IMG/VR virus record: IMGVR_UViG_2802429219_000014
Reading direction: 5' to 3' (one strand)
DNA from: a virus
Taxonomy: Duplodnaviria; Heunggongvirae; Uroviricota; Caudoviricetes
Length of the DNA: 18,170 bases
Shown here: piece after piece, positions 12,658 through 16,731 of the stretch
How positions within the stretch are numbered: position 1 is the first letter of the stretch
Layout: each line of letters opens with the position of its first letter
Position numbers and translations under genes: made by a program
Notes under the pieces: generated by a model
Databases searched by the model: none
Told to the model about the DNA's origin: nothing
The model's input: the letters and a program-made list of their open reading frames with translations, nothing else

Positions 12658-12833
12658 TGCTGCGGGTGCTTGAGGCTATCTGCCTCAGGCATGAACACCA
12701 AAAGGCAGATAGAGAAAAGCCCCAGTTAACATTACGCGTCCTGCAAGACGCTTAACATTAATCTGAGGCTCAATCTATGCTGAACACATGTAGGTTAGCC
12801 TCTTACGTGCCGAAAGGCAAGGAGAAGCAGGCT

Positions 12834-12989
12834 ATGAAGCAGCAAAAGGCGATGTTAATCGCCCTGATCGTCATCTGTTTAACCGTCATAGTGACGGCAC
12901 TGGTAACGAGGAAAGACCTCTGCGAGGTACGAATCCGAACCGGGCAGACGGAAGTCGCTGTCTTCACAGCTTACGAACCTGAGGAGTAA
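12834..12989 (+). CDS. hokD: Hok/Gef-family type I toxin (51 aa membrane peptide), HokD/RelF-like
   Basis: MKQQKAMLIALIVICLTVIVTALVTRKDLCEVRIRTGQTEVAVFTAYEPEE; single TM helix plus the conserved Hok C-terminal core; SD AAGGAG 9 nt before the ATG. Confidence 0.85.
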   Translation: MKQQKAMLIALIVICLTVIVTALVTRKDLCEVRIRTGQTEVAVFTAYEPEE

Positions 12990-14055: not shown

Positions 14056-14345
14056 TGGTGGATTTACGTAAAGCGGCGCGGGGCCAGATGTGCCAGGTCA
14101 GAATCCCTGGCTACTGCAATCACAATCCCGAAACTTCTGTGCTGGCGCATTACAGGTTGGCAGGGACGTGCGGAACAGCGACAAAACCACACGATATGCA
14201 GGCAGCGATTGCCTGTAACTCATGCCACGATTTAATCGACGGGCGGGTAAAAACCAGCGATTACACCAAAGAAGAATTACGCCTGATGCATGCAGAAGGT
14301 GTTTTTCGCACGCAAGAAATCTGGAGAAAGGAAGGTTATTTATGA
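14055..14345 (+). CDS. YbcO-like Cys-rich protein (96 aa, DUF1364-like putative Zn-binding nuclease)
   Basis: 96 aa with several Cys/His; same size and position (just before Q) as DLP12 YbcO. Confidence 0.65.
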   Translation: MVDLRKAARGQMCQVRIPGYCNHNPETSVLAHYRLAGTCGTATKPHDMQAAIACNSCHDLIDGRVKTSDYTKEELRLMHAEGVFRTQEIWRKEGYL

Positions 14346-14878
14346 TTTACCCAACAAATACAGGCAAAAGCGGGGAACACCTTCGTCTCACCACGCTGGA
14401 AAGTGTCTGGATTCAGGGAAAACTGCGCATGTGGGGGCGCTGGTCGTATATTGGCGGCGGTAAGACGGGGAATATGTTTAACCAGTTGCTGGCGTCAAAA
14501 AAATTGACGAAAACAGCCATCAATGAAGCCCTGCGCAGAATGAAAAAAGCGGGAATAGAGAAAGCTGAGCTGGAAGCGTTTTTGCGAGAGATGATCAACG
14601 GCAAGCAAAAGAGCTGGCTGGTGCATTGTACTGATGCAGAGGCACTAAAAATTGATAGTGTTATAGGTGAAGTTCTGGCGGATCATCCAGGACTACTAAA
14701 TGTCCTGAGTCAGCGTTATGTGGGGCGAGGGATGAGTAAGAGAAGGATGGCCGAGTTATTAAACGAACAGTACCCAGAGTGGGCGTTGATTACATGCCGA
14801 CGTCGTGTTGATCAGTGGTTGCGTGTTGCTGAGTTCATTTTGTATTCACCTATGAGAGAAGCGTTCGATTATGCTTAA
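14342..14878 (+). CDS. Putative late-gene antiterminator Q (178 aa, Q21/QuuD-like family)
   Basis: ATG at 14342 overlaps the preceding stop (ATGA); WGRWS motif near the N-terminus; last gene before the tRNA/lysis region. Confidence 0.55.
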   Translation: MIYPTNTGKSGEHLRLTTLESVWIQGKLRMWGRWSYIGGGKTGNMFNQLLASKKLTKTAINEALRRMKKAGIEKAELEAFLREMINGKQKSWLVHCTDAEALKIDSVIGEVLADHPGLLNVLSQRYVGRGMSKRRMAELLNEQYPEWALITCRRRVDQWLRVAEFILYSPMREAFDYA

Positions 14879-14885
14879 AAAATCA

Positions 14886-14914
14886 TTGCAAAATGAGCCA
14901 CAAACTGCTTCAAT
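14886..14914 (+). promoter_or_regulatory. Candidate late promoter pR'-like (TTGCAA-17-TTCAAT)
   Basis: Weak sigma70-like hexamers just after the Q stop; placement by analogy with lambdoid late promoters. Confidence 0.3.
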
Positions 14915-14973
14915 TTCGGTACGCTTCGCATAGCTGTATCGCGAGGCAAATTAAGCGCATGAACTTTAATACA

Positions 14974-15000
14974 ACCCGCCATTGAGCGGGTTTTGTTGTT
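14974..15000 (+). terminator. Intrinsic terminator, tR'-like (6-bp GC stem ACCCGC/GCGGGT, 6-nt loop, then TTTTGTTGTTT)
   Basis: Hairpin plus U-rich tract read in the sequence, about 60-100 nt downstream of the candidate pR'. Confidence 0.5.
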
Positions 15001-15133
15001 TCTGTGGCGTGATATCAGAAACGACATTTAATAATCGCCTTCAAAATAAATTTGTTTATACATTGTCATGTATATTTTAAGTGAAAGTGAATTATTCACA
15101 TAAAATAAAAACATATAAATAAATTTACATAAC

Positions 15134-15162
15134 TTGACGCAAAGTGTTGTTGCGATTGGAAT
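15134..15162 (+). promoter_or_regulatory. Candidate promoter upstream of the tRNA genes (TTGACG-17-TGGAAT)
   Basis: Hexamers read in the sequence about 80 nt upstream of tRNA-Thr; the -10 is weak. Confidence 0.3.
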
Positions 15163-15240
15163 ATTAAATCGTATCATCGAAAACGGTTCTGAGGGGGAAC
15201 TCTTCTTTGCTCGGTGATATCGCTCCCCTGAAGAACCAAT

Positions 15241-15316
<76 letters not shown>

Positions 15317-15319
15317 TAT

Positions 15320-15394
<75 letters not shown>

Positions 15395-15755
15395 GCATTT
15401 GAAACAAGCCTTATTGTATTGCGGCACTGGCGTATTTTTTTATTACGTGGGAGCAGGTTGTTTTGAAAAAGCATTCTGTTCTCTGGCTATGATTTGAGGC
15501 CGGGTGTAGCCTCAGTGCTGATTTTTTACGGCAGCAGAATGGTGCATTATCGGTGGAGATTTTGTATTTCCTGGCAGGGTCGGTGATGCATCATTCTGGT
15601 GTTGTAAAAGCACCGCAGAGGCGTTCCTCAGGGCGAGGGTGGTTTAAAGAGTCGGTTTAGCGGGAAACCACAGTATCCATACGGCACGGAATACTTCGGG
15701 AGGCACCCGACGCCTCGGTTTTATAACAATTAAATAATTCATCCCTTAATTGACC

Positions 15756-15782
15756 AACCGCCGTATCAGGCGGTTTTTTTTA
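15756..15782 (+). terminator. Strong intrinsic terminator (AACCGCC-GTATCA-GGCGGTT followed by eight or more T)
   Basis: GC-rich hairpin immediately followed by a long T tract, read in the sequence. Confidence 0.65.
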
Positions 15783-15790
15783 TTCTTAAT

Positions 15791-15827
15791 TCGAAAAAAG
15801 AAAACACGGACACTGATAATGTCCGTG
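15791..15827 (-). terminator. Reverse-strand intrinsic terminator (8-bp stem CACGGACA/TGTCCGTG, followed on the minus strand by TTTTCTTTTTTCG)
   Basis: Perfect 8-bp hairpin with a U-rich tract on the minus strand; back to back with the plus-strand terminator. Confidence 0.5.
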
Positions 15828-16166
15828 CGGCAATGCCATGTAAGTCAGTGATGAATATGGCGCAAAAAAAGCGCGGCTGTCGGATTAACGCCGCGGGACA
15901 AAGTCCGTGAAGAAGAATAAGTATCGGTCTCCTTCCGGAGACGAGTTGATATTACTAAGCTTTAAAAATGGTTTAAATCCTCAGATTAACCTTAATTTCA
16001 GATAAGGTTTATTTCATTTTCTCCGCGTCACATCCGACGCACATCACATCAGATAACACCACACAAAAGGCATCTGCGGGTGTCTTTGACGGGGTGTTTT
16101 TTACGGGCCGCTGGTGGCCATTTTTTGTTTCCATTACACAGCGCCCGCATCTGCGAGGTGGGGGTT

Positions 16167-16382
16167 ATGAAATCCATGGATAAGTTAACAACGGGTGTCG
16201 CCTATGGCACCTCCGCAGGCAGTGCTGGCTACTGGTTTTTACAGTTGCTCGATAGAGTAACTCCGTCACAGTGGGCTGCAATCGGTGTGCTGGGTAGTCT
16301 GGTATTTGGCTTGCTGACGTACCTGACAAACCTTTATTTCAAGATTAAAGAAGACAAGCGTAAGGTTGCACGGGGAGAGTAA
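16167..16382 (+). CDS. Class II pinholin with dual start (MKSM...; 71/68 aa), phage 21 S-like
   Basis: SD GAGGTGGGGG before the ATG; dual-start Met-Lys-Ser-Met motif; two TM segments; aligns from memory with S21. Confidence 0.85.
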
Positions 16383-16386
16383 TTCA

Positions 16387-16731
16387 ATGACACAAAACTA
16401 TGAACTGATTGTGAAAGGGATCCGCAATTTTGAGAATAAAGTTGCGGTAACTGTAGCATTAAGGGACAAAAAACGCTTTGACAGTGAAATTTTTGACCTG
16501 GACATCTCGCTGGACCGTGTTGAAGGTGCCGCGCTGGAGTTTTATGAGGCAGCAGCCAGAAGGAGCATCAGACAGGTCTTCCTGGAAGTTGCAGCCGGGT
16601 TATGTGAAGGGGATGAGCAGTCGCCGGAAAAGCGCCCCGTAATTTTAGAGGCGCAGAATGTGTGGATAACCTACAAAGGAAAGCTACCAGGAAGAATTAC
16701 TGATTCTCTGAAGACTCCACCGAAATGGTAA
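16387..16731 (+). CDS. Hypothetical protein (114 aa) between holin and endolysin, possibly YdfR/DUF1327-like
   Basis: SD GGGGAGAG before the ATG, 4 nt after the holin stop; K-12 Qin carries ydfR in the equivalent position. Confidence 0.55.
   Translation: MTQNYELIVKGIRNFENKVAVTVALRDKKRFDSEIFDLDISLDRVEGAALEFYEAAARRSIRQVFLEVAAGLCEGDEQSPEKRPVILEAQNVWITYKGKLPGRITDSLKTPPKW

Follow-up and report, generated by a model that had tools for sequence, protein, structure and literature searches.

The late region of the lambdoid prophage studied here raises the question of what is carried in the gene-free stretch that separates its transfer RNA (tRNA) genes from its lysis genes. The window analysed is the whole 18,170-nucleotide (nt) sequence of the IMG/VR virus record IMGVR_UViG_2802429219_000014, and the stretch in question (15395-15830) lies between Q, tRNA-Thr and tRNA-Gly on one side and the holin on the other; this interval is the "moron slot" of the late operon. 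A first-pass annotation had found no open reading frame (ORF) of 60 codons or more there, which our analysis bears out: no ORF of at least 50 amino acids (aa) overlaps the interval; the two longest measure 42 and 35 aa, the former lying antisense to the tRNAs. It had also placed a regulatory RNA with back-to-back terminators in this slot for late-region cargo, a proposal that is now supported by homology, by covariation and by the layout of the Stx2 phage of strain Sakai. We consider it likely that the interval holds a small-RNA (sRNA) "dyad" of the lambdoid late-region moron slot, an arrangement already described in Shiga-toxin phages. The two terminators are retained from the first-pass annotation, and the single sRNA placed between them gives way to what are probably two convergent RNAs, each with its own terminator.

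The plus-strand member, at 15615-15781, is probably a structured sRNA of about 165 nt and of a diverged STnc100/EcOnc27/PasD type, as judged from its observed structure, conservation, strand, family and synteny. Its core (15615-15716) is made of five helices, as indicated by an RNAalifold consensus, pair counts, a weak Rfam STnc100 match and a reciprocal covariance model. In the consensus an outer stem, P1 (15618-15623/15711-15716), closes the hairpins P2 (15626-15629/15635-15638), P3 (15639-15644/15666-15671), P4 (15672-15676/15691-15695) and P5 (15696-15700/15706-15710), the last being the invariant CGGGAGGCACCCG hairpin, and is followed by an unpaired linker and the terminator, all on the plus strand. 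The single-sequence minimum free energy (MFE) fold of the window sRNA gives identical helices. The linker (15717-15756), first A/U-rich and then CU-rich (UUCAUCCCUU at 15738-15747), is a candidate seed or Hfq-contact region; it is the most variable, allele-like stretch of the alignment and forms the loop of a weak A-U hairpin in the MFE fold. The RNA then ends at an intrinsic terminator (15757-15781) with an ACCGCC/GGCGGU stem and a U8 run, found by terminator scan and by conservation. This is the plus-strand terminator that had been noticed earlier at 15756-15782; its stem spans 15756-15775 (15757-15762/15769-15774 in the RNA fold), and its T run ends at 15781. The stem is kept in 42 homologues, where one loop-closing pair covaries, and sequence homology in most Escherichia coli matches stops at this terminator (query position 391). 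The 5' end, at about 15615, is estimated from the mapped 5' end of PasD (GCAUGGUG vs GCAGAGGCG).

Is this fold under selection as RNA? The first-pass annotation had itself made its candidate depend on conservation of the paired arms among homologous prophages, and strong covariation was found there. The alignment comprised 42 distinct window-type sequences of 72-100% identity. Over 39 pairs in these homologues, 97.7% of the cells were paired, as against 41-53% with the partners slid, and two-sided changes occurred at 11 pairs, as against 1-4 in the slid controls, a count reached by none of 500 shuffles.

The family was approached from both directions. At gathering thresholds (47 bits for STnc100, RF02076) Rfam gave no match in 15395-15830. 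A permissive scan placed the full length of STnc100 (1-206) on 15591-15783 with 17.5 bits (E of 0.39 for 1351 nt and 0.097 for 341 nt), with the highest-confidence columns on CGGGAGGCACCCG (15697-15709); the other permissive output was microRNA-like noise on the long hairpin discussed below. Four further window-type loci (L042, L046, L065, L102) had no STnc100 match at gathering score, and canonical STnc100 copies score 52-208 bits with the Rfam model. Conversely, R1, a covariance model built from window-type cores only, recovered canonical STnc100 over the full model length with 20.5-41 bits (E 2e-7 to 0.03) and scored 23.2 bits on the EcOnc27 locus of the Sakai Stx2 phage. On 32 control loci carrying an exact 15-mer by chance it reached at most 17.1 bits; these came from a scan of genome contigs with CGGGAGGCACCCGAC, which proved too unspecific and gave chance matches in high-GC genomes. 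A scan of IMG/VR for the CGGGAGGCACCCG motif returned more than 120 contigs. Most hold canonical STnc100 copies with Rfam scores of 52-132 bits, often placed directly behind tRNAs and arrayed in tandem, and some hold copies like that of the window, which stay under the Rfam cut-off. The identical 13-mer is present in every canonical copy collected. In a joint alignment of 49 sequences, 38 canonical copies included, 94.2% of the cells were paired, and compensatory change occurred at 19 of 26 pairs.

The likeness to STnc100 (EcOnc27 in O157 Sakai, sRNA103 in EDL933) extends from fold to position. Both have the same P1-P5 helix order, and in both the CGGGAGGCACCCG hairpin directly adjoins the 3' strand of P1 and is followed by a linker and an intrinsic terminator. 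Both lie on the strand of late transcription, with Q, tRNAs or a moron before them and the holin after them, and each ends back to back with a small RNA that converges on it. Indeed, the order in Sakai Sp5 is Q, three tRNAs, stx2AB, STnc100 (plus strand, end 4128) and AsxR (minus strand, end 4130). In contrast, the sequences of P1, P2 and P4 differ, their pairing being held by compensatory changes; the motif runs on as ...CCCGACGCC in the window and as ...CCCGGCACC in STnc100; BLAST does not find the one with the other; and the window element is tied to tRNA-Gly at about 300 nt and has a hairpin of about 38 base pairs (bp) in place of a promoter. Going by sequence and predicted fold, the element is a diverged variant of the STnc100 kind and not a member by Rfam's own criterion. 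Canonical STnc100 is also repeated in tandem, with as many as four or five copies per contig (L013 2265-3380, L076 4349-5513, L024, L022), where the flanks vary widely around an invariant CACCGGGAGGCACCCGGCACC, often near isrI, isrK or C4 RNAs and tRNAs. When the literature was searched for the motif sequence, the only papers to come up were unrelated ones on human and mouse.

In at least eight Sakai phages the interval from pR' to the lysis genes carries Hfq-binding sRNA dyads (PMC4104026, PMC7873438). Both EcOnc27/sRNA103, which overlaps STnc100 (PMC12711010), and PasD bind Hfq and have been confirmed on Northern blots (PMC7873438, PMC8550237), and PasD is reported as related to STnc100 (bioRxiv 10.64898/2026.05.13.724894; PMC8550237). 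PasD1 and PasD2 of enteropathogenic E. coli (EPEC) E2348/69, which are Hfq-dependent EcOnc13 homologues of 172-173 nt, resemble the window sRNA in length, in their slot after Q and before the holin, in a 5' end at the P1 stem (GCAUGGUGAAUCC vs GCAGAGGCGUUCC), in the P2 hairpin and in a CU-rich linker ahead of the terminator, besides the reported STnc100 kinship. Unlike the window sRNA, PasD has a truncated P5 motif (GGGAGGCGCC) and follows lpxR-like and DUF3927 genes, whereas the window sRNA follows tRNAs; moreover, the PasD seed UGUGAG is missing from the window linker.

By analogy with these Hfq-bound relatives, the window sRNA would act in trans, by Hfq-dependent base pairing through its linker. 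Such pairing is favored because the U8 terminator, the A/U-rich tract and the CU-rich, anti-Shine-Dalgarno-like UUCAUCCCUU match the position of chimeras and seed in PasD, whose RIL-seq chimeras (obtained by ligating and sequencing interacting RNAs) and predicted seed map to the 3' segment equivalent to the window linker (PMC8550237 supplement). The structured five-helix domain might give stability or some further binding function. In addition, the Shine-Dalgarno-like GGGAGGCACCC hairpin, invariant in more than 120 phage contigs with divergent flanks, may mark protein or ribosome binding beyond Hfq pairing.

Several points weigh against this assignment. We infer the transcription of the locus as well as the Hfq dependence, seed, processing and targets of its RNA, and a search of the window for a target of the CU-rich "seed" gave none: the linker, the hairpin arms and the first minus-strand cassette match it at chance level only. 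The window's 17.5 bits are far under the STnc100 cut-off, and its single-sequence folding z-score is modest (-1.58). The PasD loci (L123, L124) are missed by R1, and BLAST of PasD1/2 against the window and the cassettes gave chance words. The homologues were gathered through the CGGGAGGCACCCG motif, so that the invariance of P5 comes in part from the collection and is uninformative on structure. Lastly, the pair counts of the joint alignment lean towards structure, because the alignment was fitted to the model.

What then of the other strand? The convergent member of the dyad would be an sRNA of about 55-70 nt at 15794-15856 (minus strand). A reverse-strand terminator had been proposed at 15791-15827, and it is indeed present, with its stem running from 15828 to 15804 and a U-rich tail from 15803 to 15794. 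The candidate folds into a small hairpin and a strong terminator (z = -4.16), and a weak promoter-like site on the minus strand, CCGACA-18-CATATT, was read by eye only. The sequence 15786-15866 behaves as a discrete cassette, which 85 of 5426 E. coli genomes carry. Three unrelated cassettes, each about 70-90 nt long and the window's among them, alternate as alleles of this slot between conserved flanks (L184, L232 and others), and every alternative one also ends in a minus-strand hairpin with a T run. AsxR of Sakai Sp5 resembles the candidate in position, orientation, convergent terminator and similar predicted size; in sequence, only the CAUGnnAUUGCC box before the terminator hairpin is shared (10 of 12 nt), together with the terminator layout. 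No Rfam match to AsxR or AgvB (RF02703, RF02702) was found at E up to 10, BLAST gave no similarity beyond chance words to AsxR, PasA, PasB, PasC or AgvB, and the conserved 3' region of about 42 nt that marks the anti-sRNA group (AsxR and AgvB, with PasA and PasC as the minus members of dyads) is not in the candidate. PasB, moreover, is located in the tail region, unlike the candidate. The RNAs of the AsxR/AgvB class are 51-60 nt long, lie antisense to the late strand and converge with the plus-strand sRNA; the predicted RNA agrees with them as far as position, orientation and terminator go. It is thus plausible that the minus-strand candidate is a short sRNA in the slot that the anti-sRNAs AsxR and AgvB hold in phages of enterohaemorrhagic E. 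coli (EHEC).

Two observations touch this strand. The linker at 15737-15751 (AUUCAUCCCUUAAUU) has its initial 7-mer in common with 15842-15856 (AUUCAUCACUGACUU), in the 5' part of the minus-strand candidate, which appears as a 15-nt inverted repeat with 80% complementarity, possibly by chance. Just upstream of the candidate, a second terminator-like minus-strand hairpin (15865-15893, CGCGGC...GCCGCG with T7) is found, where another minus transcript may end.

Upstream of the sRNA core lies a further structure. The first-pass annotation had listed a 13-nt inverted repeat (15535-15547/15586-15598) in the region; the repeat exists, as the centre of a 29-nt repeat (15524-15552/15581-15609, 79% Watson-Crick), and it belongs to a separate upstream hairpin and not to the sRNA. 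This plus-strand RNA hairpin (15523-15610) is about 38 bp long, is interrupted by a single internal mismatch and carries a conserved apical part, GGUGGAGAUUUUGUAUUUCCUGGCAGGG. With G.U pairs counted, its MFE is -44.1 kcal/mol (z = -6.97), and an equal fold was met in none of 200 shuffles. It was found in 30 of 35 distinct window-type upstream sequences. Over 28 pairs in these 30 homologues 97.3% of the cells were paired, as against 30-63% with the partners slid; two-sided changes occurred at 6 pairs, and many switches were from G.U to A-U or from G.U to G-C. G.U pairs account for 23% of the cells. Because pairing amounts to 97.3% when the sequence is read as plus-strand RNA and to only 74.5% as minus strand, the long hairpin is, on this sequence evidence, an RNA structure of the late strand.

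This asymmetry bears on two other explanations. The repeats might act at the DNA level, as recombination hot spots or as a mobile inverted-repeat element that shuffles moron-slot cassettes. The homology does break exactly at the module borders (query 213/214 and 391, about 15607 and 15785), three alternative minus-strand cassettes exist and the sRNA core can be exchanged for other payload, all of which such an element would explain. A DNA cruciform would nevertheless give no such strand difference, the nested helices show compensatory changes, and the mosaicism of lambdoid phages is general and compatible with RNA function, so that we regard a DNA-level role as improbable. Less probable still, to the point of being hardly credible, is that the region is a decayed protein-coding cargo gene or a set of small-protein genes. 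ORFs of 79-87 aa are annotated as "hypothetical proteins" over the hairpin and terminator in the strains TW10573 and 504838 by the Prokaryotic Genome Annotation Pipeline (PGAP). The window interval, in contrast, has no ORF of that kind; a 1-nt difference in a T run interrupts the annotated frame in the window and the ORF crosses a terminator, the small ORFs have no Pfam matches, and what the substitutions keep is the pairing of the RNA, strand-specific G.U pairs among it, and not a reading frame. The PGAP proteins over hairpin and terminator in related prophages (WP_000904532.1, WP_001695986.1) are probably spurious. In these same two strains (TW10573, L002 3001-3330; 504838, L362 594-1016) the tRNA trailer and the long hairpin are kept and the core is replaced by an unrelated segment of about 70 nt that ends in the same AACCGCC...GGCGGTTTTTTTT terminator.

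How would an RNA of the STnc100 kind be made at this locus? In that family an own sigma-70 promoter just upstream of P1 is common, not universal: 19 of 38 canonical STnc100 copies have a promoter-like site in register, typically TTGACn-18-TAAATT a few nt before P1, in agreement with the mapped 5' end of PasD. Among 16 window-type copies, none reached a promoter score of 9 of 12 or more, and 11 of them, the window included, have no qualifying -10 hexamer (A2, T6) in register. A TGtTGTAAA at 15600-15608 was considered as an own promoter; it is a poor extended -10 with no -35 and is not relied on. The variant would instead be co-transcribed with the tRNAs, or transcribed from pR' under Q, and the sRNA would then be cut out of the transcript at the hairpin of about 38 bp. 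We favor co-transcription and excision because the hairpin sits in the place of the promoter and a tRNA lies about 300 nt upstream. RNase III acts on hairpins with at least about 20 bp of near-uninterrupted double-stranded RNA in the transcribed strand, and the long hairpin has such a stem; placed between tRNA trailer and sRNA, it is a candidate site for cleavage by RNase III or for processing of another kind. A small 5' hairpin, P0 (15598-15614), which would form after cleavage of the long hairpin, had no statistical support, as 336 of 500 shuffles match it.

Of about 21 informative window-type loci, 17 have a tRNA on the same strand about 300 nt before the core, in 16 of these tRNA-Gly(UCC), and the spacing from tRNA to core stays at about 300 nt even where the sequence of the trailer has diverged. 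This structured 3' trailer of the tRNA-Thr/tRNA-Gly unit (15395-15522, plus strand) was recognized from its predicted fold and a terminator-like site. A long-range stem (GCACUG at 15424-15429 with CAGUGC at 15513-15518) encloses internal hairpins and is followed by a U run (15522-15527); stem and U run are retained in 13 diverged homologues, with one pair alternating between G.U, A-U and G-C. The hairpin with T tract at 15495-15527, which had been counted within the small-RNA region, is present (stem 15494-15515); its T run begins 6-7 nt past the stem, which makes it a weak terminator, and its proper place is at the end of the tRNA trailer. The trailer is possibly a leaky terminator or an RNA of the 3' external transcribed spacer (3'ETS) type, as its fold and position suggest. 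In some contigs, such as L042 (2690-2802, 3461-3570) and L149, two window-type copies flank the tRNA-Thr/tRNA-Gly pair on both sides.

RNAs of the 3'ETS-leuZ type lie between the last tRNA of a unit and a strong terminator and can be released by processing, and the window RNA is similarly placed. It differs from them in a trailer of about 390 nt with an sRNA-family fold and a long hairpin, and any processing or sponge activity of it would be conjectural. We tentatively suggest, as one possibility to be held lightly, that a tRNA-linked branch of STnc100 gave up its own promoter and is made from the 3' trailer of the prophage tRNA operon, the hairpin being a portable processing module (for RNase III or similar) that frees any downstream payload.

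The main rival to a trans-acting sRNA is that these structures belong to the late-operon leader or the tRNA operon and work in cis only, by terminating or insulating the tRNA and lysis transcripts or by serving their processing or stability. A role in cis would suit the constant position of the element between pR'/tRNAs and the holin, the lack of a recognisable promoter of its own in the window variant, the two or three terminators crowded before the lysis genes and the failure to find a target within the window. Termination, on the other hand, needs no five-helix junction with 11-19 covarying pairs, the canonical relatives own promoters and terminators and accumulate as discrete Hfq-bound RNAs (PMC7873438, PMC8550237), and the variation of the linker resembles that of an allelic seed. 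We therefore consider an exclusively cis-acting role unlikely, albeit the most serious competitor of the sRNA dyad. Within the dyad itself, the two terminators might moreover keep transcription of the tRNAs and sRNAs out of the lysis genes in the lysogen.

The window is a lambdoid prophage of E. coli, of which a copy with 99.8% identity adjoins trkG (the Rac site) in strain 190 (NZ_CP020520), where nothing is annotated from tRNA-Gly to the holin essD. In the window, a Q-type antiterminator gene (14222-14878, matching DUF1133 and Phage_antitermQ) is directly followed by a tR'-like intrinsic terminator (stem 14973-14992, then a T run); a promoter-like site (15150-15177) then precedes tRNA-Thr(UGU) (15241-15316) and tRNA-Gly(UCC) (15320-15394), and the P21-type holin starts at 16167. 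A terminator consensus scan of 14700-16400 gave 8 terminator-like sites, as against 1.7 +/- 1.6 in shuffles. Further observations were made along the prophage. The sequence 14879-15000 has the form of a pR'/tR'-type leader, from which a short RNA comparable to lambda 6S or StxS would arise, and 14899-15004 is about 90% conserved across several phages, where it is unannotated. On the plus strand a hairpin with a T run (16106-16119) stands just ahead of the holin. The prophage also carries two type I toxin-antitoxin RNAs, at 1557-1735 and 12664-12839: RalA, the antitoxin RNA of RalR (Rfam, 218 bits), and the sok antitoxin RNA adjoining hokD (120 bits).

How widespread is the element? The stretch was found in 313 of 5426 complete E. 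coli genomes (about 6%) with 80-100% identity, and it is unannotated in most of the matches listed. The region is modular, since homology breaks at about 15607 and about 15785. On E. coli plasmids, possibly phage-plasmids (e.g., NZ_CP051656.1 97457-97618), 38 distant copies of the sRNA module with 72-80% identity were seen.

To conclude, the architecture and the family described here were already known, and current understanding is not overturned. What our analysis adds is a diverged branch missed by models and annotation, its tRNA linkage, a conserved hairpin in the place of the promoter and an uncharacterised minus-strand cassette. The sRNA dyad of EHEC and EPEC phages would thus extend to ordinary Rac-site prophages without stx, in a form carried by about 6% of complete E. 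coli genomes and missed by Rfam and PGAP annotation. The tRNA linkage together with the long hairpin offers a concrete hypothesis for biogenesis. Moreover, the CU-rich linker varies and the minus-strand cassettes can be exchanged, which suggests that prophage sRNA alleles have gone unrecorded in large number; these could rewire the regulation of their hosts.

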